Part shown: one piece after another, positions 6,451 through 63,803 of the stretch
Layout: every line of letters begins with the position of its first letter
Position numbering within the stretch: the stretch's first letter is position 1
Source: a virus
Length of the DNA: 64,000 bases
Direction: 5' to 3' (one strand)
Virus record (IMG/VR): IMGVR_UViG_3300037515_000251
Coordinates: 7,926-71,925 of that record
Program-made: the position numbers and the translations under genes
Notes under the pieces: generated by a model
Database searches by the model: none
Told to the model about the DNA's origin: nothing
Seen by the model: the letters and a program-made list of their open reading frames with translations, nothing else

Positions 6451-9400
6451 ATGCCGAACTCGCTGGAATTTATCCGAAGGGCCAAGCCGGAGCAACTACC
6501 GGTCGGCGCCGGGAATTCGCTCGATTTTATTCGCCAGGCGAAGCCGGGCAATTCCCTGGATTTTATTAAGTCGGCCAAAGCATCCGATCCCGTGTCAGTT
6601 TGGCACGGACAGCCCACGCCCGCAACCGCCGTCTCGACCACGCCCTCGCGCCGGGAACTCGGAGCCGAGCCGGAGGGTTTCTCAATCGGCCGCTTTGCCC
6701 GTGGTTTCTTTCGCCCGCCGGGGGATACACAGGAAGCCGAAAACGAGCGCATCAAACGCGCCGTCGTGGGCACGCCGGAGAAGCCGACATGGTTCACGCC
6801 GGAGACCCCGGAGCGCCCCACGACCCCGGCTGGCTACATGCGCCAAGCCTACCAGGAAGGAGGCGCCCTGGGTGCGGCTGGCGAAGTCGCCAAGATGGGC
6901 GTGCTCGGCCCGCTCTACGGCGCATTCAAGCAGCGCGACACGCCGCCGGTCCAGGCGGGCGAGCTATTCGAGCCGGGCACCGAGGCCCGCGGAATCGCTG
7001 AAGCCGTCTCGCATTTCGCCACGCCGACGAATGCCGCGATCATTGCCGGGGCCTCGACACTGACTGGCATACCCGCGATAGCCCTGAGCGCGTACTTCGC
7101 TACCGACATGGGCGTTGGAGCCTACCAGACTGCCGGGGAGATCGCCAAGGCCAAATCCGAGGGCCGGGAAGACGATGCGCGGGAACTCACCGGGCAGTTG
7201 ATGGTGATGATTCCGGCGGCGCTTGGCGCGGCGGGACATGCGGGCAAGAAAACCGTGGGGATCATCGGCGACCGGAGTGGACGAATCAGAAGCGGAGAGC
7301 CGACGACGCAGCCGCCGGAAATCACGTCGGTTGATGCGCCAGCGGTGCCGCCTTCGCCCATCGCCGCGCGTGCCGAGCCGTTGGCTGGAGAGATGACTGC
7401 TTCCCTCCAGGGTGGCCAGCGCACGCTGCCATTTGTAAGTGAAGCGGACCTTCGCCCTCCGCCGCCGCCAGCACCACCAGGAGTACCGCCGCAAGGTCCA
7501 GGCGGTCCCGCGGTTCCGCCCACGCCGCCGGGAGCGGGCCGTCTACCAGAATCCGAATCCTGGGTTCAGAAGCGCATTGATCTTGAAGACCGGCTCTATC
7601 CCGTCAAGGCGATGGAGAAGATGGCCCGTGACCCGCTGAGCATCGAGGAATCCGCCTACCACCGAATGCGGATGTACCCGGCCGTGTTCGCGCGCGCGCA
7701 AAGCCATCTCGAAACGCTCCGCAAGGGACTCAAGCCGATCCGCCAGACGTTCCGCGAGGATATCAAATCGTTCATCACCGACAAGAAGCCAGCCGATCTG
7801 GTGAGCGAGTTCGAACGCTACGCCACGAACGCCCATGAACTCGACGTGCAGCAGGTCTATCCCGAACGCCAGTTCTCGGGCGGACGCACCCGCGAGCAAA
7901 TCATCCAGGAACAACGCGATATTCAGCAGCGCCTTGGCCCGGACAAGATGGCTCGCCTCAATCAGGCGCAGCGGGCATACTCGGAGTTCGGCCACAGAAT
8001 GCTCGACGAGCTTGTGGACGCTGGCGCATTCAGCCGCGACGTGGCCGCCAGGCTCAAGCAGGCGTATCCGCGCTATGTTCCACTGGAGCGCGTGCTGGCG
8101 GAAGCGGAGGGCGTATTGAAGCACCCCGGAACCGGCGGCGGGAGATCCATGTCGGTTTCGACTCAGAACGTCGTCCGCAAACTCACCGAGCAGGGCAGCG
8201 AACTCGAAATCCAGCGAGCACTTGAAACCATGAGCCGTAAGGCGTTCGACGCATTCTCGCTAGCCGAGCGCAACCGGGCCTCACGGGCCGTCTACGATCT
8301 TGCCGGGAAGGAAGAGTTCGCCGGAACGGTAATCCGCCTGCGGCCGGAAGCCGATCCACCGCCGGGCATGGTGCGTTCGTCGGTGCTGATCGACGGCGTG
8401 CGGCACGATTACGCTGTACCACGGCAAGTCGGCGAAGCGATCCAGGGATTGACCAAAACCCAAGCGGACGTGGTGACGGAAATGGCAGGCAAGAGCGCCC
8501 AAGCCCTCCGCGCCGGTGCAACGACCTGGAGCCTGCCGTTCCTGGGTACGAACATCGCCCGCGATTACTACACGGCCTCGATGCGCTCGCCGGTCGGGTT
8601 CACGCCGCTCGACATGATCGCCGGGTTCTACCACGGCCTCAAGAAAGACGCCCTGTACCACGACTACCTGCGCTCGGGCGCCGCCATGTCGGGGTTCTTT
8701 GAGCAATTCAAGACGCCGCAGCGCGAAGCCCGCCATCTGGTCGAAAGCCAAGCGACCAGGAACATGAAGAAAATCCTGAACCCGTTCGAACTTATGTCCG
8801 AGATCGGCCAGGCTGGCGAGAATGCGGCCCGCATCGGTCTCTACCGGCGCGGCAAGCAGGCTGGACTATCCGAGATGGAAGCCGGTTGGCTCGGGCGCGA
8901 TACGACCGTGGACTTCGCCAAGTCCGGGCGGGTGATTCGCGTCCTGAACATCCTGACGCCGTTCATCAACGCCCGCATTCAGGGCAGCGGCAACATGCTG
9001 CGTACCTTCCGCGATAATCCAGGCGAGGCGAGTTTGACTTGGTGGGCATTGATCGGCGGGCCGTTGACGGCGCTCTACCTCTACAACACGCGCAATCACC
9101 CGGAAGCGTACCGGGACATGCAGCCGTACACCGAGGAAGCCTATTACCCGCTCATTACCGGAGACGAAAAAGACGAAGATGGCAGCTATCCTGGCTTCAA
9201 GTTCCCGATGGAAGAGTTCGGGCAACTCGGGGCGCGCAGTCTGCTGGCGGCCTTGCAGCATCTCGATGAGAACGACCCGGTGGCGCTCAATAAGCTGGCG
9301 AGCCGCATGGGCCTCAGCGGGCGCGAGCTTCAGCCGGGGGAAGGCAAGAAAGCGCCGAGCGCGGCCAAAGTTGCTTTCGAGACGGCGACTGGCCTGCTCC

Positions 9401-10198: not shown

Positions 10199-10217
10199 GG
10201 TGCCAAACTGACACCGA
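10199..10217. repeat. genome-wide palindrome copy (cgGTGCCAAACTGACACcg)
   Basis: between convergent gene ends 10194/10218. Confidence 0.9.
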
Positions 10218-12636: not shown

Positions 12637-12651
12637 GTGTCAGTTTGACAC
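12637..12651. repeat. genome-wide palindrome copy (GTGTCAGTTTGACAC)
   Basis: 8 nt upstream of HNH ATG (minus strand). Confidence 0.9.
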
Positions 12652-14235: not shown

Positions 14236-14250
14236 GTGTCAAACTGACAC
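14236..14250. repeat. genome-wide palindrome copy (GTGTCAAACTGACAC)
   Basis: ~27 nt upstream of minus-strand start at 14208. Confidence 0.9.
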
Positions 14251-16400: not shown

Positions 16401-16472
16401 CGGCGTCGGCTGGATTTGAACCAGCTACCTAAAGTTTTCAAAACTTTCGCTCTACCAATGAGCTACGTGTAT
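16401..16472 (-). ncRNA. tRNA-like RNA (D-arm, anticodon-like arm with loop UUUGAAA, T-arm GCUGGUUCAAAUCCAGC) lacking a pairing acceptor stem; candidate Y RNA (YrlA-like tRNA mimic) or partial tRNA
   Basis: minus-strand sequence …ACACG-UA-GCUC-AUUGGUA-GAGC-G-AAAGU-UUUGAAA-ACUUU-AGGUA-GCUGG-UUCAAAU-CCAGC-CGACGCC-G; 5' heptamer AUACACG cannot pair with 3' CGACGCC; 3' tail forms CGCC-GCAA-GGCG GNRA hairpin; T-arm identical to tRNA at 46386. Confidence 0.5.
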
Positions 16473-16556: not shown

Positions 16557-16571
16557 GTGCCAAACTGACAC
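16557..16571. repeat. genome-wide palindrome copy (GTGCCAAACTGACAC)
   Basis: between gene end 16575 and tRNA-like RNA. Confidence 0.9.
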
Positions 16572-19026: not shown

Positions 19027-19508
19027 TGGACAAGAGCCATGTACTCACGCACCCTGCCAGTCTCCACGTTGCGCTGGTGGAACTTCTTCGGCTCGCGCCC
19101 CAGTCCGTCGCAGAACTCGCAGTTCTCGGCCTCCCGGCGTAGCACGGCGAGCCGCGTCATGTCGCTTGCCGACCAAGCCTTTTCATCGGCAGCGGTGCGG
19201 ATGTCGAACTCGGTTGGGGTCCACTCCCCGGACGTGGCGAAGTGCTCGACGCAGGCTGCGATTGCCTCGGCATTGGTGCAGTAGCGTAGCACGGCATCGA
19301 TCAGCGTCTTGCGGATGGCGGGATCAGTGGGCCAGTTCTTGAGAGTAGCCCAACGGGTAATCCCATTGATCGCTTCCTGTTCGGCGGGACTGAGTTTGCG
19401 CTTCTCAGGCGCCGAGGCTTTGGATGTACTCGGCGATCCCGTCCGTCTTGCTTGGTTTGGCTTGGCGGCGCTGCTGTTCAGTAGTGAAGAAACACTCGAT
19501 AATGGCAT
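18972..19508 (-). CDS. hypothetical protein
   Basis: 178-aa ORF with CxxC…CxC cluster. Confidence 0.3.
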   Translation of the reverse strand: MPLSSVSSLLNSSAAKPNQARRTGSPSTSKASAPEKRKLSPAEQEAINGITRWATLKNWPTDPAIRKTLIDAVLRYCTNAEAIAACVEHFATSGEWTPTEFDIRTAADEKAWSASDMTRLAVLRREAENCEFCDGLGREPKKFHQRNVETGRVREYMALVHCRCPYGQLRAKVEGQGA

Positions 19509-20510
19509 CGGCTGAAACTCCTTTCATGTGATCGGCGGCATGTTTTTCGAACGTCCCAATCAACCTCGTCTCGAAACCTGGCTTGTCTTGCAGGTACATC
19601 GCTTCGAGCAGCGCGATCTTCCAGGCTGGCAGGTGAAGATCAACCCACTGCACAACACCGTTTCCGGGCGGCAATGCGCGTAAACGGCAGGCATTCACCA
19701 CCGAGATGATGACCCCGGCTTGCGGGCGCGGATCCAGCTTCGTGTCAGTTTGGCACCGATTGGGCCGGGAGAACGCCTCGGATGGCTGGCGCGATCTGGT
19801 AACCCCGCCATTCGGCCGACGCGGACGCCCTGGGACCCCGACCAGGGCCAGCACGTCGTCGGTCACATTCCCGCCGTCCCCGGAGCGCTCGTCGAGTAGC
19901 GCCGCGATCCGCTCCCGCAACTCCGGCGAATCAGCCTCGGTGAGCAGCCGCCGCTTCGACCCCGTGGTGATCCGTAGCGACAGCCCCAGGCTCCGCGCTT
20001 CGTCCGCCGCCCACTTGTCGATGGGGCGCTCCATTTCCGCGGAGTTCTGTTTTGGTAAGGGGGTAGGGGGATTATCTCTTTCTTTAGTATTTTCTTTAAG
20101 AGAAGAATCTATAAGGACGGGATCGGGGTTGACCGTCGCATGGGTGCGACTGTCACCGTCGCATGGGTGCGACTGTCGAGCGGAATCGACCGTCGCATGG
20201 GTGCGACTGTCGAACAGGATCGAGTAGCTGACTGGGAAGCCTCCGCCGTTCGGACTTTTGGCGATCAAGCCGCGCTCAATGAGTGAGTTTACTGCTCGGT
20301 GAAAGGTGGCGACGTTGATCTGCGACCACCCACAAATCGTGTCCCTGTCAACCGTGACGACTTGACGCTGGAACCCGATCGTGAGCCGGTAGATCGACAG
20401 GTAGACCTTCATCTCCGAGGACGATAAATCGCCCATGATCTGCTCGATGAAGTCGTGATTGAGTTGGCTGAAGTTGCCTGAAGGCGGCCGGTTCGGCCTG
20501 GATTTCATGG
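19405..20510 (-). CDS. replication-initiator-like protein (winged-helix N-terminus) with origin-like iterons inside its coding sequence
   Basis: probable start MKSRPNRPP at ~20510 (GAGG upstream); N-terminal MKVYLSIYRLTIGFQ…INVATFHRAVNSLIERGLI helix-turn-helix-like; ORF reads through palindromic motif at 19742 without a stop, so 3' boundary uncertain. Confidence 0.4.
19742..19756. repeat. genome-wide palindrome copy (GTGTCAGTTTGGCAC)
   Basis: inside/at 3' end of initiator-like ORF. Confidence 0.9.
20132..20211. repeat. three 23-bp direct repeats (accgtcgcatgggtgcgactgtc; iteron-like) next to an AT-rich patch (20075-20115): candidate origin of replication
   Basis: copies at 20132-20154, 20155-20177, 20189-20211; flanking ttatctctttctttagtattttctttaagagaagaatctataagg is strongly AT-rich for this genome. 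Confidence 0.6.
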
Positions 20511-24000: not shown

Positions 24001-24015
24001 GTGTCAAACTGACAC
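24001..24015. repeat. genome-wide palindrome copy
   Basis: 19 nt upstream of minus-strand ATG at 23982. Confidence 0.9.
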
Positions 24016-25050
24016 GGGAAAACGTTTCATCGCGATGAGGTCCATTAGCAGTTCCTCGGCTACCTCGCGGCTCGGCTCCAGCGGCAGCATAGAACGGTCC
24101 CGAGCGGCCTTCGCCTCCGCGAACAATTCCTCGGCGCATTCTTTCACTGTCTCGATGGACCACTCCCCGCGCTTGATGGCGAGAAGTTCATCGGCATCCC
24201 GCTCGCGGTAGACGTTGAGCGTGCCCGAGTCGAGAAACTCCCGGCACATCCTCAGCAGCCGAATGCAATGAGCGGCGTGCTTGGTGTCGTATCCGCGCTC
24301 CAGGATCAGGCGCTTGCGCTTCTCACCCAGGTAGCCGAGATTCGAGTTCTTGGAATGAAACGCCTTCAACTTATCGCGGAGATGCTGATCTTCGTGGAAC
24401 GCGAAAATGGTGGTTTCCTCAACCGGGAACTTCTCGCCGCGATGCTGCGGATGAATCCCGCGTTGCTTCATCTCGGCAACGAGTTCAAGGTAGTCCTGCA
24501 ATGTCGCCCGGTCGAGGCATTCCATCCGTTCCAACTGCCCCGCCGCGTATCCGGCGAACGGCTTGTAGACATGGCGACCGATGAACAGCGCGCGATTCGC
24601 TATGAGCAAATTGCTGAGTGGGGAAGCGACAATCCGGTGTTCGGGCCTTGTCCACAGTGAGCTCATGATGTTGGGATTCCCGGCCAGCAGCAGCGAGAAA
24701 GCCTTGCGGAGTTCGTAGAACAACAGGTCGAACTTGCCCTGCTTGGTTTCCTTGGTGCCGCGAGAACCCCATTCGGTGAGGCCGATGTAGTGCGCTTTCG
24801 GGGCCACGGCAAACCCGATCACGTCCACGTCGTCCACCGAATGCGGATCGCTCTCGGGCAGATACATGCCGTGCGCCACTGAGCCTCGAAAGGCCGCGAA
24901 GATCACATCGTCCGGCAGGATTGCGCTGAACCCGTCCATGTGTGGGATAAACGCTCGGGTGCTGGCCCCGAGTCCAGGACTCGAACCTGGATTCTCCGGT
25001 CCACAGCCGGGTGTCTTAACCTGTTGAGACGAACTCGGGATTTCATTCAT
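24004..25050 (-). CDS. pol-beta superfamily nucleotidyltransferase (GS-x9-DxD) with helical C-terminal domain
   Basis: FRGSVAHGMYLPESDPHSVDDVDVIGF minimal NTase motif; palindromic motif + GGAGA SD 11 nt upstream of ATG at 25050. Confidence 0.55.
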   Translation of the reverse strand: MNEIPSSSQQVKTPGCGPENPGSSPGLGASTRAFIPHMDGFSAILPDDVIFAAFRGSVAHGMYLPESDPHSVDDVDVIGFAVAPKAHYIGLTEWGSRGTKETKQGKFDLLFYELRKAFSLLLAGNPNIMSSLWTRPEHRIVASPLSNLLIANRALFIGRHVYKPFAGYAAGQLERMECLDRATLQDYLELVAEMKQRGIHPQHRGEKFPVEETTIFAFHEDQHLRDKLKAFHSKNSNLGYLGEKRKRLILERGYDTKHAAHCIRLLRMCREFLDSGTLNVYRERDADELLAIKRGEWSIETVKECAEELFAEAKAARDRSMLPLEPSREVAEELLMDLIAMKRFPVSV

Positions 25051-25061
25051 GGTTTATCTCC

Positions 25062-25076
25062 GTGTCAAACTGACAC
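25062..25076. repeat. genome-wide palindrome copy
   Basis: 11 nt upstream of NTase ATG (25050), SD GGAGA between. Confidence 0.9.
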
Positions 25077-28553: not shown

Positions 28554-28568
28554 GTGTCAAACTGACAC
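28554..28568. repeat. genome-wide palindrome copy
   Basis: upstream of small minus-strand membrane ORF. Confidence 0.9.
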
Positions 28569-30037: not shown

Positions 30038-30134
30038 CATAATCCGGCCTGTCAACACTAATGTTGCATTATTTTCGTTTGCTACACTGTGGACGATGCG
30101 AAGGTCGCTACCCAAGAGACGTTCGAAATGCGAG

Positions 30135-30797
30135 ATGCACCCGCAGGTGGAAGCCCTGTTTCAAGCTGTGACCGAGGGCGAGCCGATGAATTCGATCCTG
30201 CGCTGGCTCGATCCGCCGGTTTCCCGGCCGACGCTGACGAGATTCAGGGACGACGTATTGGGGAACCGGATCAAGACACAGGGGTTGGGGCGGGCGGAAC
30301 CGGCCAAGGCCGCGGAGATGGTGCCCGCGCGGCAACTGTCGATGAGCGCGCCGCGGAGCCGGGAAGCGATGGTTGGCCCGCCCGAACGCGCATTCGATGT
30401 GGAAGTCGAGCCGCAGCGGTTGGCGGCTGTGCGGCGCCGGGTCGAATTGGTCGAGCGTTTCTACGAGGACAGGGCGCTGACGGTCCATGAGGAGCAGCTC
30501 GGCGCGGTGCGGCAGTTGACCGGGATGGCGGCGGACCCGGCTTGCGATCCAGTCCAGCGCGTGAAGTTGCTCGAACAGGCCACGAAGCTGCTCAACGGTG
30601 GGGCGTTGGAGCGGTCGCTAGGGGAAGCGGCCAGCTATGCCAACGTGCAGCGCAGCCAGTCGAAGCAAGGCGGCGGGCGGTCGCTGATCGAGATGAATTA
30701 CATGGTGATGCCAGCCGCGCAGGTGCCGATCAACCACACGCTGCCGATGCCAAGACCAGCACCGGCCCTGATTGAGTCAGAGCCGGTGAAAAAGTAG
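30135..30797 (+). CDS. hypothetical protein (plus-strand moron inside minus-strand block)
   Basis: ORF 30096-30797, probable start MHPQ at 30135; AT-rich divergent spacer 30037-30135; palindromic motif at its 3' end. Confidence 0.4.
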   Translation: MHPQVEALFQAVTEGEPMNSILRWLDPPVSRPTLTRFRDDVLGNRIKTQGLGRAEPAKAAEMVPARQLSMSAPRSREAMVGPPERAFDVEVEPQRLAAVRRRVELVERFYEDRALTVHEEQLGAVRQLTGMAADPACDPVQRVKLLEQATKLLNGGALERSLGEAASYANVQRSQSKQGGGRSLIEMNYMVMPAAQVPINHTLPMPRPAPALIESEPVKK

Positions 30798-30802
30798 CGG
30801 CG

Positions 30803-30817
30803 GTGTCAGTTTGGCAC
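30803..30817. repeat. genome-wide palindrome copy
   Basis: between convergent genes 30797/30822. Confidence 0.9.
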
Positions 30818-31752: not shown

Positions 31753-31767
31753 GTGTCAGTTTGGCAC
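31753..31767. repeat. genome-wide palindrome copy
   Basis: between 31732 start and 31775 end. Confidence 0.9.
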
Positions 31768-34722: not shown

Positions 34723-34737
34723 TTGTTCCGCCGTGTC
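34723..34737. repeat. genome-wide palindrome copy
   Basis: intergenic 34680-34751. Confidence 0.9.
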
Positions 34738-34750
34738 AAACTGACACGGG

Positions 34751-36367: not shown

Positions 36368-36382
36368 GTGTCAGTTTGACAC
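36368..36382. repeat. genome-wide palindrome copy
   Basis: edge of control region. Confidence 0.9.
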
Positions 36383-36879
36383 GGGGTTAAATCAGCTTGT
36401 CAGTGGAACGATGCGGCCTAACTCTCCGCTCCGTCCCTACCATTGCCAGCGAGAACGCCAGCACGATAACTGCGGTCAGCGGGTCATCCGTATTCAGGAT
36501 CGCCACCACCGCCGCCACGATTGAGAGGGGGATTAGGGTCGTCATCTGGAAACCTCGTCGCTGGTCCAGAGGTCTGTCCCAGCCTCGTAGAGCCGTACCC
36601 TGATTCGCTCCAGTAAATTCCATGCTCTGTGCTTGGCCCCACGTTGCAGGCGGTCCACGATGTAGAGCGCCTGAGCCGTAGCCGATTCACGATTGATGAA
36701 TTGTGGTTGAGCTTTCATGGCATCTCCTTTGGTTTCAACGGCTTTGGTAGCATAGAGCCTCGGCTCATCGGATCGTCTCGGCGAAACGGCCGGCCCAGCG
36801 TTCGTCCCGCCTGCCAGCCTCTTACCACCGATTGATCCGCCACCCATACCGCTACATCCCGGCGAGCCATTCGAACCGC

Positions 36880-37700
36880 TATGCTCGCCAGTCATAATGC
36901 AATACTAGCATTGCATTTCGGGGCTAGTCAAGCGGATTATGATAATTATTGGCGATTCGGCGAAGATTTTACAATTAGTACACTCGTGTTGACAGTAGAG
37001 TGTCAGAAAAATCTGACAGGTGTCAGAAAAATCTGACAGTTTGGGGATTACGACTGTAAGGATTTATGACAGTCGGAGGTCTTTCCCTTGGGGTGTGAGA
37101 CACTCGTTAGACACTTTATGGCGCAAAGTGTCTCATGTGAGACAGTCTATTGCTCGGCCCTCCGAATCAGCACTATCGGCGCCGCCGGCAGCAGTGATGG
37201 CAGGCCCGCCGCAGCGTCAGGACCGCACCAGGTCGAATCGCTGGCAGGGTTGATAATGTCGTATAACATGTATTGTGTAAACTTCTGAAATCGAAACTAA
37301 CTACTGTGCTGTCATACAGATACAGCGATATGCCGGAATTATGGAACACCCAGGAAAATAGGCAACCACAACATGTTGTGGTCAGTGCTACTGGTGGAGT
37401 GCTGCTGGTCGAGCGGTCGAGCGCGTGGCCGGAGCTGGTGGAAGTGGACGAGTCGCGGCCCGTGCGGTGGGTGTGGTGGCCAGGCTCGGTCGGTGGCGCG
37501 GCTGGCAGTGGTGGACCTCGTGCGCGACCCCCATGCCCCCTTTTCACAGGAATGGGTTCCCATCTGCCCGTGGTATCACGATTCTCCGTCCACATACATC
37601 CCGATTCCTGCGACCATGGTACACGAGTTGTATTTTCAACGACTTACGGGAGGCAAAAACATGGTGCGATTATGGTACGGGTTTATGCGATAATGGTAGA
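36880..37700. promoter_or_regulatory. low-GC divergent control region between minus-strand early block and plus-strand regulator block; contains TTGACA box and several operator-like palindromes
   Basis: AATGCAAT-N6-ATTGCATT (36886-36907); TTGACA (36999-37004); tandem TGTCAGA-AAAA-TCTGACA at 37011-37028 and 37031-37048; GTGAGACAC … GTGTCTCA … TGAGACAG inverted set (37095-37145); no convincing ORF across 36900-37690. Confidence 0.6.
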
Positions 37701-38113
37701 AGTATGGATGAATTTAGCCAAGAATCGTTGACGCCGTTCCAGGAGATCGCGATGTGGAGACATAAGGGGAAGGATGGGCGGCTAATGAGCCGGGAGAGGC
37801 GGTCGGCGGTGATGCGGGAGTTGGGGAAGCTGAGGCGGGGGCGTGGAGGGCGGGAGGCGACGGTGTTGCACGCGCCTGGGCCGAGAGGGGGGTGTCGGTG
37901 TGCGGAGTGCCGGCGGGGAGGTGGGTCGGCGGACAGGGGGAAGGGGAAAGAGCATGCCCCTGGGAGCGCCGGGCAGGCGCAGAAGCCGGTTTCGGTGGAG
38001 TTCGAGCGGGCGGCGGAGGGGGAATGGGAGTGAAGCCGCTGGCGCGGTACATCGCGAGGGCGTTTCGGCCGGGTTGACAGGGACGGGCCGGTTATGCAAC
38101 ACTGCTGTTGACA

Positions 38114-38784
38114 TGGCGGATGGTGCCAGACTGACACGGCGGGACGGGCGGATCGTGGAGATGCGGGCCGGGGGGATGACCTTGGCGGCGATTGGGCTTG
38201 AGTTTGGGGTAACGCGGCAGCGGGTGCGGCAGATAATCGAGAAGGCGTGCAGGGGCCGGCTGTGCGTGCGGTGCCGGCTGCCGGATGGGCGGCTGGACGG
38301 GGACGGGCTGTGCGGGAAGTGCGTGCGGCTGCTGGAGATCGTGGCGGACGATTCGCTGGCTTGCGAGGAAGCAGGCCAGAAGGCGGGTGTTTCTGGTGCG
38401 GTTGTTCAGCAGACTCGCCGGAAGTTCGGGATTCGGCATCAGTACCGGAAGCATTTCAGGGACGGTGTGCCGGAGGATGTATTCGATCCGCGGGCGAGCG
38501 CGTTGGCGCTGACACGCAAATACGGAGTTGGCAAGGGCGTTATTCAACACTTGCGAAAGAAGGCTGGGCTGGCTGGCCTACAGCGGAAGAAGCTGTTCCC
38601 ACAAAAAAGCTGGACGACTGACGAAGATCGTGTGCTTGTGGAGATGCGCCGGGCTGGCAAGACCTGGGCGGAGATTGGGGAGAGCCTGGGGCGGTCGCCT
38701 CAGGCGTGCCGGACAAGGCAGATCAACCAGCGGCGGAAGGGGATCGAAATGGGCGCGTGGCCGGAGGTCGCGGCGCCGTGCTGA
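38114..38784 (+). CDS. multi-HTH transcriptional regulator (sigma-r4-like HTH + SANT/Myb-like C-terminal repeat)
   Basis: LAAIGLEFGVTRQRVRQI HTH; C-terminal WTTDEDRVLVEMRRAGKTWAEIGESLGRSPQACRTRQ Myb-like; variant of the genome-wide palindrome (GTGCCAGACTGACAC) overlaps codons 4-8. Confidence 0.45.
38123..38137. repeat. variant palindrome copy (GTGCCAGACTGACAC)
   Basis: overlaps start of regulator gene 38114. Confidence 0.7.
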
Positions 38785-38848
38785 TCGAGGCGAACCCGGA
38801 GTACGTCAGGCTGATCCGCAAGCGCCTGGCGCAGGAGGTTTTGTTCGG

Positions 38849-42117: not shown

Positions 42118-42132
42118 GTGTCAGTTTGACAC
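42118..42132. repeat. genome-wide palindrome copy
   Basis: upstream of XRE-like gene. Confidence 0.9.
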
Positions 42133-42205
42133 GGGGCCACAACACGGACGTTGACAGGATGAATCGCCATGAGCAATACTGGTGTTGCATGACCAAGGAC
42201 TGCCG

Positions 42206-42436
42206 ATGAACATTACCGAAGCGCTTCGCCAGGCCCGCCGGTCGGTTCCCCGGAGTCTCGCGGGCGTGGCCGAAAAGATGGGCGCGACCACCCAGGCCGC
42301 CAGCCGCATCGAGCGGGACGCCGGGCGGGCGAACTTGCTGACGCTGGCGAAGTACGTCAAGGCGCTCGGCGGGAAGCTGATTGTCGAGATCAGGATGCTG
42401 GGCAAGGACGAGCGGACGTTCCGGGGGGATGTATGA
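42206..42436 (+). CDS. XRE-family HTH regulator
   Basis: MNITEALRQARRSVPRSLAGVAEKMGATTQAASRIERDAG HTH_3-like; motif ~75 nt upstream. Confidence 0.45.
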   Translation: MNITEALRQARRSVPRSLAGVAEKMGATTQAASRIERDAGRANLLTLAKYVKALGGKLIVEIRMLGKDERTFRGDV

Positions 42437-44223: not shown

Positions 44224-44238
44224 GTGTCAAACTGACAC
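44224..44238. repeat. genome-wide palindrome copy
   Basis: overlaps stop of 43917-44235 ORF, upstream of ligase-like gene. Confidence 0.9.
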
Positions 44239-46774: not shown

Positions 46775-46789
46775 GTGTCAAACTGACAC
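46775..46789. repeat. genome-wide palindrome copy
   Basis: between tRNAs and structural block. Confidence 0.9.
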
Positions 46790-51092: not shown

Positions 51093-51908
51093 AGATACGC
51101 ACGGTTCATCGCTCTTTTGTTGTTCGGTGTCAGTTTGGCACCAGGTCAGGCGGTCATCAACGGAGCGCGGGTGATGCCGGAGATCAGCTCTCCGTCCAGC
51201 CCGGCGGCGAACAGCTTGGCGGTTTACGTCTGCGACGACGCGGGAACCACGAAACTCTGCTCGAAGGATTCGGCGGGGACCGTGTCGATTGGCATCGGCA
51301 CTGGCGGAAATGGCGTGGCGCAGGGAGGCACCGGCCAGACCAGTTATACCAAGGGCGACCTGCTGTGCGCCACGGGGGCGACGACGCTCGCTAAACTTGC
51401 CGTTGGCACGGACGACCAGGTGCTTACCGCCGACAGCGCCGAAGCCTGCGGGGTGAAATGGGCGGCGGCGGCGGGCGGTGGCGCACAAACAGCCCAGCGG
51501 GCGACCATGTGGGCCGATGAGTTCACTCCGGGGGCTAGCTGTGCATCCATTACTACAACAATAGACGCGGCGCAGAATTATGCCTTTTATTCAAACTGTG
51601 CCGACAATGCCGATGGAGACGATTTCACAACATCATTTTCATTGGCTGCTGGCACCTACACAGTTTATGTGCTCGGCGTGACTTTCAATAATCGGGCGAT
51701 ACTCGACTGGGAAGTGGACGACGTATCGGTAGAGACGGGACAGGATTGGTATTCTGCTGGAGTTGTAGCTGGTGCCGTCAAAACATTCCCGATCACCGTA
51801 ACTGACGGATATCACAAACTCGAAGGAATCGTGAACGGCAAGAACGCATCGTCCTCGGCATTCATTGTCACACTTACAAAGATTTGGATCAAACCAGCAG
51901 CGGATTAG
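51093..51908 (+). CDS. tail-fibre-like protein with signal-peptide-like N-terminus
   Basis: MRYARFIALLLFGVSLAPGQA; G/T/A-rich; C-terminal ~90 aa has a frameless paralogue immediately downstream. Confidence 0.4.
   Translation, partial: RYARFIALLLFGVSLAPGQAVINGARVMPEISSPSSPAANSLAVYVCDDAGTTKLCSKDSAGTVSIGIGTGGNGVAQGGTGQTSYTKGDLLCATGATTLAKLAVGTDDQVLTADSAEACGVKWAAAAGGGAQTAQRATMWADEFTPGASCASITTTIDAAQNYAFYSNCADNADGDDFTTSFSLAAGTYTVYVLGVTFNNRAILDWEVDDVSVETGQDWYSAGVVAGAVKTFPITVTDGYHKLEGIVNGKNASSSAFIVTLTKIWIKPAAD
51127..51141. repeat. genome-wide palindrome copy inside CDS
   Basis: within signal-peptide-like coding region of 51093 gene. Confidence 0.9.
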
Positions 51909-52275: not shown

Positions 52276-53103
52276 ATGCACTATGACACCGACCGCCTGC
52301 GTGAGCAGATCGCCGCCCGCCGCGAGGCGAAGCAGAGGTTGTTCGTGCGGCGCGTCGTTTTCGTGGGCTTGATGACCTTGTTTGCATTGGCGTTGCTCTA
52401 CTTCTGGCCGCCGCGAGCGCTTGGGGCCGACCTCACATTCTCGTTCCACCGCCAGCCCGACGAGGAAAAGCACACGCCCTGGTATCTCTGCGTCGAGAAC
52501 CTGTCTCCCGAACCGGCCCGCGTGCGGCTGGCGGACATCTACCGGGCGGCTGGCGGAAACGTGGCGCTCTACGACCCCGGCAAGCTGTCGAACGTTATGC
52601 GCCACAAGCCGCGGGCGAAGTGGCTCAGGGCGCTTGGGATCGCCGGGGCCGCGGCCTCGATTGTGATTCCGCTGGCCGGGGTGAAGGAAATCGGCGTCAA
52701 CCTGATTGGGCCGGCCCTGAGCGGCGGAACCGCCATCGCCGTCCCGGCCATTGAGGCAAACCAGCGCTTTGAAGTCGGGATTGAGGGCTACTGGACGACC
52801 GATCACCTGCTCGACGCCCGCGAGGCCCGCTGCTCTCGCGTAATGTCGGCACGGTCGAAGGATACTCTGGCGACGTTCACATTCGAGAGCCGGGATGTGC
52901 GGGCGGAAATGTTCCACGAAGCACAACACGAGCAGGATGAATTGATTCCATTCAGCAGCCTGAAGGTGGAGCACGGCGGGGCCTACACATTGCCCGGCGA
53001 TTGTGTTTCGTGCCAAACTGACACTGCCATGTTACAGCCGCCGTGCAGGCCGTCCGCCGTGGTTGAAGAGGATGGAGTCGAGCCGTGCGCTTGGGTAGAC
53101 TAG
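52276..53103 (+). CDS. hypothetical membrane-anchored protein
   Basis: 275 aa, TM helix near N-terminus, strong GC3 bias (antisense 350-aa ORF rejected); palindromic motif lies inside its 3' end. Confidence 0.4.
   Translation: MHYDTDRLREQIAARREAKQRLFVRRVVFVGLMTLFALALLYFWPPRALGADLTFSFHRQPDEEKHTPWYLCVENLSPEPARVRLADIYRAAGGNVALYDPGKLSNVMRHKPRAKWLRALGIAGAAASIVIPLAGVKEIGVNLIGPALSGGTAIAVPAIEANQRFEVGIEGYWTTDHLLDAREARCSRVMSARSKDTLATFTFESRDVRAEMFHEAQHEQDELIPFSSLKVEHGGAYTLPGDCVSCQTDTAMLQPPCRPSAVVEEDGVEPCAWVD
53010..53024. repeat. genome-wide palindrome copy inside CDS 3' end
   Basis: within 52276-53103. Confidence 0.9.
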
Positions 53104-59946: not shown

Positions 59947-59961
59947 CGTGTCAAACTGACA
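59947..59961. repeat. genome-wide palindrome copy
   Basis: between portal-like and scaffold-like genes. Confidence 0.9.
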
Positions 59962-60080
59962 CCGACTTGCCTTTACATGTAAAAAAAGCGTACAGTATCA
60001 GTGAGCCGGATATCCCGTATTCCGTACCCCGTAGGGCCGACAGGCCCATGTAGGCTCCCGATGAGATACCGAGAGAACAC

Positions 60081-63074: not shown

Positions 63075-63803
63075 ATGGCCTATGGATCGTTCCAGTCCGA
63101 CAGCGCGGGCATGAAGCCGCGAACCGAGATGGTGAAGCCTCCCAACCCATTCGAGCAGCGCTTGCTCCAGCCGGAACCGGCCCCGGCACAGCATCCCGGC
63201 CTCAATCCGGCGTCGTTCCGCTCGAATCCATTCGCCAGGATGGGCGGCATGGGAGCGCGTGCCGCGATGGGCGGAGGGCAGCCGCAGCCACCGCCGCAGG
63301 CTCCGGCGTATGGGCTGCGGGAACGTTTATCAGGGGGGATGCGCGGGCTGCCGCCGATGATGGATCGCGGCGGCGGTGGTTACAACCCGAACGCGCCAAG
63401 CCCGGATATGCAGCGGCGAATGCGAATGCCGGAGGATTATCGACGCGGGGCGGACGAAGCGTTTTCCCGTGCCAGTTTGGCACCGCCGCCGACTGGAATG
63501 CCCGGCGGAATCATGGGCGAGCGTAGCGGCATGGACCGGCTGCGAGCCGCTGGCGGACAAATGCAGGGAATGCCCACCGACCCGATCCGGCAACGCCTGA
63601 TGGCACAACGCGGCGGTGGAATGCCGCCGCCACAGCCAGCGCCGCCAGCTTGGGCTGGCGGCGATCCGAGATTTCCGCCGCAAGGACGGCCTGGATCGGC
63701 CAATCCATTCTTCGATCGCCTGTACGCCCAGGATCAGCCGTCGCTTCAGCGGCCAGCGCCAATGCAACAAAACTGGAACCTGCCTCCGGAGATGTACCAG
63801 TAG
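63075..63803 (+). CDS. low-complexity P/G/M/Q-rich protein
   Basis: 242-aa ORF, repeats of MGG/PPP/QRP; contains a palindromic motif copy at 63469. Confidence 0.3.
   Translation: MAYGSFQSDSAGMKPRTEMVKPPNPFEQRLLQPEPAPAQHPGLNPASFRSNPFARMGGMGARAAMGGGQPQPPPQAPAYGLRERLSGGMRGLPPMMDRGGGGYNPNAPSPDMQRRMRMPEDYRRGADEAFSRASLAPPPTGMPGGIMGERSGMDRLRAAGGQMQGMPTDPIRQRLMAQRGGGMPPPQPAPPAWAGGDPRFPPQGRPGSANPFFDRLYAQDQPSLQRPAPMQQNWNLPPEMYQ
63469..63483. repeat. genome-wide palindrome copy
   Basis: inside 63075-63803 ORF. Confidence 0.85.

Follow-up and report, generated by a model that had tools for sequence, protein, structure and literature searches.

A central question at this locus is whether a phage protein with multiple helix-turn-helix domains (the multi-HTH protein, or regulator) controls its own gene through a variant copy of a dispersed palindrome that lies within the first codons of that gene. 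The window analyzed here is the whole stretch of 64,000 nucleotides. The open reading frame of the 223-aa protein occupies 38113..38784 on the plus strand, stop codon included, and an identical protein (P0001) is encoded on the public contig L043. The original prediction had given its limits as 38114-38784; the end stands, with the stop codon at 38784, whereas the start must be moved by one nucleotide, since the string quoted there, ATGGCGGATGGTGCCAGACTGACACGG, is found at 38113-38139, which places the ATG at 38113. This ATG is also chosen by the public gene call on the identical contig and by a codon-usage gene caller, and it is supported by an alignment of homologs, which shows conservation of T8-R9 and, starting at residue 5, of the region-4 domain. 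The gene is the first of the rightward arm, and its product is, judging from its sequence, a rare phage DNA-binding protein.

The variant site, GTGCCAGACTGACAC, is located at 38123..38137 and is one mismatch from the oriented 15-mer GTGYCAAACTGACAC (hereafter motif A): it combines an A7G change in the centre with a tolerated C at position 4. A site over codons 4-8 had been predicted, and such a site is present, but it begins at base 2 of codon 4 and ends at base 1 of codon 9, a span encoding the residues G-A-R-L-T-R. It is indeed the only copy with a GAC centre, all other copies in the window having AAC or GTT. Fourteen of the 15 motif positions are kept, while the protein constrains only T8-R9 there, and, with the A-to-G change, position 7 becomes the complement of position 9, which gives the variant a more symmetric centre. 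Because only 0.19 matches to the 15-mer at ≤2 mismatches are expected by chance in the window, the variant is a genuine, though imperfect, member of the dispersed 15-mer family.

Perfect GTGTCA-N3-TGACAC copies number 11 in the window against 0 expected, and the family as a whole comprises 19 exact copies of GTGYCAAACTGACAC and two one-mismatch copies (38123 and 63469) in 64 kb. These occur as a T type, GTGTCAAACTGACAC, and a C type. Intergenic positions account for 14/20 copies, as compared with 9% non-coding DNA (P = 8e-11), and the median gap from the upstream stop codon to a copy is 3-4 nt. One copy abuts the upstream stop codon (12637..12651, minus strand), one overlaps the stop of an RlaP-family gene (24001..24015, plus), and in another the internal TGA is itself the stop codon of the upstream gene (44224..44238, plus). 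Copies also follow stop codons at 2 nt (past RecT, with a positional counterpart in contig L177; 25062..25076, plus), at 3 nt (past a 42-aa HTH ORF, 14236..14250, plus; and a C-type copy at 16557..16571, plus, upstream of a TTGACA-17-TAACTT promoter and a tRNA-like gene), at 4 nt (42118..42132, minus, 18 nt upstream of the -35 of the promoter P_xre), and at 10 nt (59948..59962, plus). Two C-type copies fill convergent stop-stop gaps (10200..10214, plus; 30803..30817, minus). Other intergenic copies are found at 28554..28568 (plus), 34733..34747 (plus), 36368..36382 (minus, in the leftward early operon), and 46775..46789 (plus, downstream of tRNA-Pro), along with C-type copies at 31753..31767 and 51127..51141 (both minus). 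The intragenic copies are of the C type at 6592..6606 (minus), at 19742..19756 (minus, within the RepO-like initiator gene, and kept in L177 in another frame), and at 53010..53024 (plus, near a 3′ end), and include the second one-mismatch copy, GTGCCAAACTGGCAC, at 63469..63483 (minus). Two tandem 20-mers, GTGTCAGAAAAATCTGACAG, at 37000..37039 share the outer half-site of motif A with a longer spacer, while isolated GTGTCA half-sites outside full copies are not enriched (13 vs. ∼22 expected). Relative to local gene direction, the copies show no preferred orientation (10 GTT vs. 9 AAC). Two motif A copies flank a tRNA-His and RlaP module of the window that L177 lacks, an arrangement suggesting that recombination joints are marked by copies.

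The two strands of motif A contain TTGACA and CTGACA, respectively. A role as a sigma-70 -35 element was considered and rejected: when a -10-like hexamer was sought 16-18 nt downstream of either hexamer, the summed -10 match was 45 and 42 in the two orientations, compared to 42 at random positions. Likewise, promoter-like matches beside motif A are not meaningfully enriched once the motif's own TTGACA is discounted. An intrinsic terminator was also rejected, given that the copies have no T-run or U-tract and the core hairpin reaches only -5.1 kcal/mol.

We compared the window with related phages on contigs L040/L177 and L181 (samples ERZ27257111 and SRR34438308). Motif A is identical in all of them and is conserved across phages whose proteins are only 34-60% identical. 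In 10.5 kb of a relative with proteins 37-84% identical, 4/4 motif A copies are at syntenic places, and retention of the initiator-gene copy in a different reading frame indicates that selection acts on the DNA. A member of the multi-HTH family is encoded in all three motif-bearing lineages. The L040 ortholog is 58% identical, with one copy 19 nt ahead of its ATG and another 5 nt past its stop, and in the 59% identical ortholog the region-4 helix is changed to TRECIRKI. The L181 ortholog, at 34% identity, has a changed sequence in each of the four recognition helices; this phage has the identical 15-mer without a copy at the 5′ end of the regulator gene, and the association between gene and motif is thus not universal. 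No motif A was seen in L042, L178, and L179, short contigs on which family members are encoded.

The surroundings of the regulator gene have been rearranged between these phages. Directly past the regulator lies a remnant of a DNA methyltransferase C-terminus (38766..38846, plus; 27 codons), detected by tblastn with the L181 methyltransferase fragment as query (78% identity over 27 aa); in L181, the methyltransferase end is intact and lies before the regulator. Part of the regulator 5′ region (37 nt) is duplicated at 37791-37827, and the gene order around the regulator differs in L040 and L181.

Beyond these relatives, an exact motif A scan of IMG/VR gave only single, unrelated matches, as did a scan of JGI metagenomes among the matches listed. 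A genome scan with a 19-mer gave 12 matches, about the number expected by chance, one of which (L166/L176) is a real triple array. No similar isolated phage was found in INPHARED, and a literature search on the motif string returned nothing relevant.

The RepO-like gene of the window contains tandem palindromic iterons (GTCGCA-CCCA-TGCGAC) followed by an AT-rich block of 74 bp that is 100% identical between the window and L177. Motif A occurs there as a single copy ∼300 bp downstream of the iterons, with ∼20 copies elsewhere, and is therefore not the origin iteron in the window. The iterons of L177 (AGCTCA-AAA-TGAGCT) are different, while motif A is the same and again present once. The RepO-like initiator was rejected as the reader of motif A on these grounds, as both the iterons and the initiator N-termini differ between the window and L177 and motif A does not. 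In two prophages, L176 and L027, GTGTCA-N3-TGACAC itself forms the origin iterons within the initiator gene; L176 has the identical 15-mer three times in tandem, and no multi-HTH homolog is present in its 20.8 kb. No homolog of the L176 initiator DNA-binding domain was detected in the window, even at E = 50.

The regulator protein was originally described as combining a sigma-r4-like HTH with a Myb/SANT-like repeat, and both domains score above their Pfam cut-offs. Sigma70_r4 (PF04545) matches aa 5-47 (38125..38253, plus) with an E-value of 2.9e-10 and 40 bits (cut-off 24.1), and the AF2 model places helices at residues 3-19, 24-31, and 35-46. The best PDB sequence matches for this segment are to region 4 of primary sigma factors (sigma A/RpoD; 1ku3/1ku7, 2p7v). 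Its recognition helix, FGVTRQRVRQIIEKA, differs little from the helix of primary sigma region 4.2 (fgvtrqrvrqiiekacr vs. FGVTRERIRQIENKALR in the alignment with primary sigma factors). The region 4.2 helix of primary sigma factors reads TTGACA. Downstream of this domain, a Cys4 zinc-ribbon-like segment (38263..38322, plus; C51, C54, C67, and C70, invariant in 8/8 aligned family members) has an inferred metal-binding role. Two further three-helix bundles are modeled at aa 68-105 (38314..38427, plus; helices 68-78, 84-91, and 95-105, with pLDDT ∼80) and aa 121-150 (38473..38562, plus; helices 121-124, 130-137, and 141-150). The Myb/SANT-like domain spans aa 165-217 (38605..38763, plus; helices 169-180, 185-192, and 196-208), with 27.8 bits for PF13921 (Myb_DNA-bind_6; aa 167-217; cut-off 22.9) and 23.1 bits for PF00249, slightly under its cut-off of 24.4; W167 is invariant in 8 homologs.

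The protein is accordingly predicted to be a chain of four three-helix HTH-type domains (one sigma-r4-like, two unclassified, and one Myb/SANT-like) and a Cys4 zinc ribbon. In the AF2 model (pTM 0.33), the four domains are strung out like beads, and no dimer interface is evident; a fold search with this model gave no significant global match. Assignment as a sigma-70 factor was considered and rejected: Pfam detected neither Sigma70_r2 nor Sigma70_r3, without which the protein is not a sigma factor, and the remainder consists of the zinc ribbon and three more HTH bundles. Searches of IMG/VR and GTDB genomes returned no homologs. A PHROGs and Pfam survey of ∼80 proteins of the window yielded as DNA-binding candidates, beyond the regulator, only a MerR protein, an XRE protein, the 42-aa HTH ORF, and RepO; neither an integrase nor an immunity repressor was identified there. 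Candidate readers of motif A are the multi-HTH protein, the Cro-like XRE protein (76 aa), and the MerR-like protein (124 aa).

The promoter of the regulator gene (P_reg) is composed of a -35 TTGACA at 38074..38079 (plus), which aligns without a gap to the P_xre -35 elements of the window, L040, and L181, and a -10 AACACT at 38098..38103 (plus), 18 nt past the -35 and ending 9 nt before the ATG. In a relaxed promoter scan, this TTGACA-18-AACACT is one of 25 promoter-like matches in the window; a stricter scan reported no plus-strand promoter at this location, and the -10 fits the consensus at only 3/6 positions. The -35, the spacing, and a palindrome (described below) are all held in common, without gaps, by P_reg and the P_xre promoters of the three phages. 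No Shine-Dalgarno-like motif occurs in the 20 nt before the regulator ATG, although one is present in 67/88 genes. Given this and the position of the -10 only 9 nt from the ATG, the regulator mRNA is probably leaderless, and, counted from the transcription start deduced in this way, the variant 15-mer would probably lie at about +11..+25 of the transcript.

The palindrome at P_reg (palindrome B; 16 bp) includes the -10 and is common to three other promoter regions. The copy at P_reg is B-like, GCAACACTGCTGTTGA (38096..38111), and from its alignment with the other B copies is a probable operator. In P_xre (TTGACA-18-AATACT; 42151..42188, plus), palindrome B is GCAATACTGGTGTTGC (42173-42188), again over the -10, and a third copy, GCAATACTAGCATTGC (36899..36914), covers the -10 of a leftward promoter, TTGACT-18-TAGTAT. 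A related B-like palindrome, TCAACACTAATGTTGC, is located in a divergent intergenic region (30052..30067). P_xre precedes an XRE/Cro-like HTH_3 gene (42206..42436, plus) whose recognition helix is identical in three phage lineages; a search for the XRE protein in IMG/VR returned no matches. Palindrome B appears to define classical early promoters and is a putative second operator family beside motif A; the conserved Cro-like XRE protein is the most likely reader of palindrome B.

The explanation that best accommodates these observations, and which we hold with moderate confidence, is that the regulator is a B-controlled early gene with a motif A roadblock site. As the -10 of P_reg lies inside palindrome B, primary control of the gene would be exerted through the B operator, probably read by the Cro-like XRE protein. 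Motif A would act as a double-stranded DNA site for a sequence-specific protein, and a protein bound to GTGCCAGACTGACAC would form a roadblock just past the transcription start that throttles both the regulator and the rightward operon. The reader could be the regulator itself, though this is the less probable case; otherwise, the gene would be a target of cross-regulation. Counted against this explanation are the -10 of P_reg, with its 3/6 consensus positions and its absence from the stricter scan, the lack of a copy at the 5′ end of the L181 ortholog, the attachment of motif A to stop codons, which a roadblock does not obviously need, and the status of the variant as one of only two imperfect copies, both intragenic, such that it may be non-functional. 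An RNA-level role is very improbable by comparison. In such a role, a palindrome hairpin in the mRNA 5′ end would control translation or stability, in keeping with the 6-bp hairpin of T-type copies (-5.1 kcal/mol for the core, approximately -10.8 kcal/mol with CC/GG flanks) and with the way the family hugs gene 3′ ends. However, the variant, when read in sense, contains a C-A mismatch and does not fold stably (0 kcal/mol); C-type copies, which are found in either orientation with respect to transcription, likewise give 0 kcal/mol in the sense reading. Moreover, there is no U-tract, and the stem is not consistently extended by flanking bases. The absence of an orientation preference, together with C-type sense copies that lack a hairpin, places the putative function at the level of DNA rather than RNA.

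Direct negative autoregulation, in which the multi-HTH protein, probably as a dimer via its sigma-r4-like HTH, binds motif A genome-wide and, through the lower-affinity GAC variant in its own 5′ end, shuts off its own transcription only at high abundance, is a tentative reading. The site at approximately +11..+25 of P_reg is where a bound protein could block RNA polymerase, and autoregulation through the 15-mer is geometrically plausible; the near-identity of the region-4 helix to that of primary sigma factors, which reads TTGACA, matches the TTGACA within motif A. The comparison with relatives is divided and, on balance, leans against it, leaving this possible but doubtful. The L040 ortholog is bracketed by two copies, a family member occurs in all three motif-bearing lineages (a co-occurrence confounded by shared ancestry), and, if the XRE protein reads palindrome B, the regulator is the only other DNA-binding protein seen in common among them. 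Nevertheless, motif A is unchanged although none of the four recognition helices is the same in the L181 protein, and even the 59% identical ortholog has an altered region-4 helix. L181 also has no copy at the gene start, contigs L042, L178, and L179 carry family members and show no motif A, and the L176 prophage has the 15-mer in tandem without a regulator homolog in 20.8 kb. In addition, the motif family clusters at stop codons throughout the genome, the AF2 model lacks an evident dimer interface, P_reg has a different and more obvious operator in palindrome B, and the two imperfect copies, both intragenic, could be decaying. That last point leads to a further reading, rather unlikely in our estimation, in which a once-intergenic or recombination-joint copy was captured in the open reading frame during a rearrangement and now has no function. 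The methyltransferase remnant, the 37-nt duplicate, and the differing gene order in L040 and L181 agree with such a capture, as do the overlap of the right arm of the site with the conserved Thr-Arg codons ACA CGG, the restriction of imperfect copies to intragenic positions, and the joints suggested by the copies flanking the tRNA-His and RlaP module. On the other hand, 14/15 positions are kept where only T8-R9 is constrained, the A-to-G change yields a more symmetric, not a random, centre, and the copy in the initiator gene is clearly selected, so an intragenic position does not imply decay. The roadblock site in a B-controlled early gene is the reading we prefer.

Several known systems offer points of comparison. 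The lambda cI mRNA from P_RM is leaderless, and the regulator gene resembles it in seemingly being translated from a leaderless mRNA; palindrome B over the -10 of several early promoters, the one of the Cro-sized XRE gene among them, is reminiscent of the lambda cI/Cro early operators. In contrast to lambda, where operators are in tripartite arrays, the B sites are single, the multi-HTH protein architecture is unrelated to that of cI, and there is no evidence for an immunity-repressor role. In lambda, the iterons of ori-lambda lie within the initiator gene O, and the RepO-like gene of the window is similar in having tandem iterons inside it with an AT-rich block next to them. The similarity to sigma region 4.2 on the -35 (PDB 1KU7) consists of a nearly identical helix in aa 5-47 and of the TTGACA in motif A. 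It ends there, as sigma regions 2 and 3 are missing and no -10 follows motif A at promoter spacing. Reb1 and TTF-I are eukaryotic multi-Myb/HTH proteins that halt polymerases by binding immediately 3′ of a gene. The manner in which motif A hugs stop codons recalls them (PDB 5EYB), by analogy only. Unlike the phage protein, they are eukaryotic, and the Foldseek match is not significant (E 0.54).

Dispersed short palindromes are found in a few phage groups, and, to our knowledge, a function is known only for the Cluster A stoperators. The Cluster O mycobacteriophages (Corndog) have 17-bp dyad repeats with a 7-3-7 layout in tens of copies, mostly intergenic, with a strongly biased centre and an orientation unrelated to transcription; a dimeric binder was predicted, and the function is unknown (PMC4351075). 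Motif A is similar in its 6-3-6 layout with a 3-bp centre, its dispersal, its lack of an orientation rule, and predicted dimer binding. It differs in that its centre is nearly invariant (AAC) and one arm tolerates T/C, which makes it truly asymmetric, and in its median placement 3-4 nt past stop codons and its conservation at 34-60% protein identity. The Cluster A stoperators (L5 gp71 and the TipsytheTRex repressor) occur in >20 copies in promoters and short intergenic gaps and are proposed to stop initiation and elongation; they are 13-bp asymmetric sites, oriented with transcription and inactive when reversed, and are bound by a two-domain monomeric repressor (PMC9283540). The many motif A copies in short intergenic gaps (14/20) are comparable, whereas their orientation (10:9) is not tied to transcription. 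By this analogy, we favor a stoperator-type action as the functional model for motif A.

This phage group is an unusually clean case of dispersed palindromes, with a strict 15-mer in ∼20 copies at stop codons and few, separable candidate readers. If the multi-HTH protein is not the reader, its gene is simply an early gene of the usual kind in which one repeat copy happens to lie. If the protein does read motif A, it would represent a novel type of silencer or terminator that acts genome-wide and has a sigma region-4 mimic at its core. In its fullest and rather speculative form, which we consider unlikely, the four-HTH protein would be an orientation-independent roadblock protein at gene ends, a sigma-r4 mimic reading a -35-like core and limiting its own expression via the GAC copy. 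With similarly low confidence, such a protein could be viewed as a palindromic counterpart of the stoperator repressors and a functional analogue of the eukaryotic Myb-type terminators.

The multi-HTH regulator is a 223-aa protein whose ORF ends, stop codon included, at 38784, as in the original prediction, but begins one base before the predicted 38114: the string quoted for its 5′ end maps to 38113–38139, which sets the start at 38113. The same start codon is used in the public gene call on an identical 12.7-kb contig (L043) and was chosen by a codon-usage gene caller trained on the window; T8-R9 are conserved among homologs, and the region-4 domain starts at residue 5. The gene's 5′ end does carry a variant (GTGCCAGACTGACAC, 38123–38137) of motif A, the dispersed 15-mer GTGYCAAACTGACAC with the core GTGTCA-N3-TGACAC, although it begins at the second base of codon 4 and ends with the first base of codon 9 (codons 4–9, encoding G-A-R-L-T-R) and not over codons 4–8. 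Its GAC centre is, as claimed, unique, with AAC in all other copies in the window, and the variant is a genuine, non-random member of the motif A family.

With copies oriented as the asymmetric 15-mer, motif A occurs in the window as 19 exact and 2 one-mismatch copies (38123 and 63469), where 0.19 matches would be expected by chance at two or fewer mismatches; perfect GTGTCA-N3-TGACAC is found 11 times, vs. 0 in shuffles. The T/C variation falls in the same arm in 9 of 9 single-variant copies (P about 0.004), and isolated half-sites are not enriched in the window. Although 91% of the genome is coding, 14 of 20 copies are intergenic (P = 8e-11), and another two overlap stop codons. The median distance to the upstream stop codon is 3–4 nt, the distance to the next start is variable (7 to 210 nt), and each of the two convergent gene junctions is filled by one copy. 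Orientation relative to transcription is 10:9. No −10 at promoter spacing downstream of the copies and no U-tract after them was found in the window, and C-type copies, which occur in both orientations, do not fold into the hairpin when read in sense (0 vs. −5.1 kcal/mol). The intergenic bias and the lack of an orientation rule, −10, U-tract or, in C-type copies read in sense, hairpin indicate that motif A is putatively read by a sequence-specific factor as double-stranded DNA; a role as a roadblock or in silencing is favoured with low certainty. One copy accompanies a good promoter (TTGACA-17-TAACTT) upstream of a third tRNA-like gene, 16407–16467 (−), scored by Rfam at 52.6 bits (partial model 6–65) and without an ARAGORN call.

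Related sequences comprise a few short contigs only. Three of these (L040, L041, and L177), from one ENA sample and with proteins 37–84% identical to those of the window, hold four motif A copies in 10.5 kb, 4 of 4 at places corresponding to the window: 19 nt upstream of the regulator ATG and 5 nt past the regulator stop, followed by a palindrome B promoter (L040), and 4 nt past the RecT stop and within the RepO-like gene (L177). Because the RepO copy is read in different frames in the window and L177 (RCQTDTK vs. FGAKLTRG, in an otherwise unalignable linker), selection on motif A within this gene acts at the DNA level. In another relative, L181, the regulator is 34% and the Cro-like XRE protein 78% identical to those of the window; the identical 15-mer is present twice, one copy providing a gene's stop codon, and none lies at the regulator start. 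In either orientation, one reading frame of motif A includes TGA, and this is the actual stop codon of two unrelated genes (window 44224–44238; L181 2555–2569) whose proteins both end ...VSN. The contig of a distant family member, P0009, lacks motif A and has its own intergenic repeat, CTGATRYATCAG ... TCGTATAAGTAC (L179, 1036–1065, 1310–1350, and 1840–1900), preceding several genes including the regulator homolog. Two unrelated AT-rich IMG/VR phages (42–44% GC; L017 at 798 and 2828, L029 at 48, 1198, and 3146) carry a dispersed extended palindrome, GACAGA-GTGTCA-NNN-TGACAC-TCTGTC, just upstream of the ribosome-binding sites of genes, and would represent another phage group in which the motif A half-site is used genome-wide.

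The window derives from a tailed phage, with a large terminase, tape-measure-like proteins, RecT, an SbcC-like ATPase, a RepO-like initiator, ArdC-N, an RNA ligase, and tRNAs annotated. Its genes form a leftward arm from about 36 kb and a rightward arm from 38.1 kb, of which the regulator is the first gene. The ∼1.4 kb between these divergent arms (36719–38112), strongly purine/G-rich in its right part, contains no gene that codon usage makes convincing, and the public call on L043 has two ORFs in it (37373–37693 and 37752–38033). This gene-poor control region also holds, just past a TTGACA, two perfect tandem 20-mers (GTGTCAGAAAAATCTGACAG, 37000–37039) with GTGTCAG/CTGACA arms like those of motif A and a longer spacer, near three GTGAGACACT-like repeats (37095–37146). 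The predicted regulator promoter (TTGACA at 38074–79, an 18-nt spacer, and AACACT at 38098–103) aligns gap-free with that of the XRE gene (42151–42188; gene at 42206–42436) and with the XRE promoter of L040 and L181, all of these matching in −35, in spacing, and in a 16-bp palindrome, B, over the −10 (GCAAYACT-NN-NRTTGC). Palindrome B occupies 38096–38111 at the regulator, 42173–42188 at the XRE promoter (conserved in L040 and L181), and 36899–36914 over the −10 of a leftward promoter, with a related copy in a divergent gap (30052–30067). Its position over the −10s of several early promoters marks it as a predicted operator of the classical early-promoter type, with the regulator gene in its regulon. 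The XRE protein (76 aa, 74–78% identical, and unchanged in its recognition helix, across three lineages) is encoded directly behind a B-controlled promoter and, by analogy with Cro, is the natural candidate and probably the reader of B. Divergent from the B-like operator is a lone rightward gene within the leftward arm (30135–30797 (+), 220 aa, without a family match), whose 3′ end lies at a convergent junction holding a motif A copy and whose position resembles that of a repressor or moron gene. Since there are 9 nt from the end of the regulator −10 to the ATG, which has no Shine-Dalgarno ahead of it (one is present in 67 of 88 window genes), we infer a leaderless mRNA, which would put the motif A variant at about +11 to +25. 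Palindrome B is the more evident control element of the regulator gene.

The predicted domains of the regulator are borne out by Pfam: Sigma70_r4 at residues 5–47 (40 bits, cut-off 24.1) and a Myb-like domain at residues 167–217 (27.8 bits, cut-off 22.9). A PDB sequence search with the first 77 residues matched region 4 of primary sigma factors only, with nearly identical recognition helices (fgvtrqrvrqiiekacr vs. FGVTRERIRQIENKALR of 1ku3/1ku7); the regulator is not itself a sigma factor, because sigma region 2 is absent. The AlphaFold2 model (mean pLDDT 74, pTM 0.33) has low-confidence linkers between four separate three-helix bundles, and a fold search with it returned no significant global match. 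Between bundles 1 and 2, C51, C54, C67, and C70 are invariant in 8 of 8 aligned family members, which suggests a zinc ribbon. The full-length architecture is rare, with 3 proteins among 5.8 billion in a word-indexed search and ∼6 clusters at 50% identity among 1.84 billion representatives.

That this protein reads motif A, as originally proposed, is possible but rather unlikely. In its favour, its sigma-4.2-like helix would suit the TTGACA/CTGACA core of motif A, the L040 ortholog is bracketed by two copies, a family member is present in all three lineages, and, if XRE reads B, elimination leaves it as the sole further shared DNA-binding protein seen. However, the window and L181 have an identical 15-mer but not one of the four recognition helices in common, the region-4 helix is changed even in a 59% ortholog, three short contigs with family members lack motif A, the association with the gene 5′ end in 2 of 3 lineages is about a 10% chance result as estimated from copy density, and the modeled bead-on-a-string monomer would be an odd partner for a near-palindrome. 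The remaining probability is split among XRE, another phage protein, and a host factor. The RepO-like initiator was excluded: within its gene (19405–20508) lies a lambda-like origin (20053–20200 (−)) in which a 74-bp AT-rich block (20053–20126) comes after two to three 23-bp iterons (AGTCGCACCCATGCGACGGTSAC); the block is 100% identical in DNA to L177 although the RepO proteins are only 37% identical. The L177 iterons (three copies of AGCTCAAAATGAGCTACCCCCY) differ, the cores upstream of the block being GTCGCA-CCCA-TGCGAC in the window vs. AGCTCA-AAA-TGAGCT in L177. The N-termini of the initiators are different too, whereas motif A is the same in both phages. The motif A palindrome does form 3–4 tandem iterons, with 22–23-bp spacing and G-run spacers, in wHTH initiator genes of two unrelated lambdoid-type prophages: L176 (9268–9327; in Phycisphaerae MAG OY776568.1), with the exact window 15-mer including CC/GG flanks, and L027 (6815–6895; from IMG/VR). 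Neither L176 (20.8 kb) nor L027 (8.3 kb) has homologs of the regulator, XRE, or MerR, so the half-site is used by other protein families.

The copy at 38123 may instead be a passenger at a rearranged locus. Both imperfect motif A copies of the window are intragenic, and the regulator gene is directly followed by what remains of a DNA methyltransferase, its last 27 codons (38766–38846, with 78% identity to the end of the L181 gene). The intact end of the methyltransferase lies upstream of the regulator in L181, evidence of cassette-like shuffling. A 37-nt, 70%-identical partial duplicate (37791–37827) of the regulator 5′ coding region (38140–38176) sits 349 nt upstream. Elsewhere, a module of tRNA-His and an RlaP-family RNA-repair nucleotidyltransferase (24001–25076) has same-orientation motif A copies on both flanks; at the syntenic site L177 lacks the module and has one copy following RecT, a hint that recombination joints may lie at motif A copies. 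Against a passenger, 14 of 15 positions are kept though only two codons are constrained, and the A-to-G change increases the symmetry of the centre. Autoregulation through the variant is a hypothesis with a sensible geometry that comparison with the relatives somewhat disfavours.

The closest parallels to motif A are both from mycobacteriophages. Cluster O phages carry 34 copies of 17-bp dyad repeats of unknown function, whose 3-bp centre is biased and whose orientation follows no rule (PMC4351075). In Cluster A phages, stoperators are sites for a repressor in the gaps between genes and halt elongation in an orientation-dependent manner (PMC9283540), whereas motif A shows no orientation preference (10:9). 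We classify the system with the already known dispersed phage dyad repeats, combined here with an early gene that has a promoter-proximal copy.
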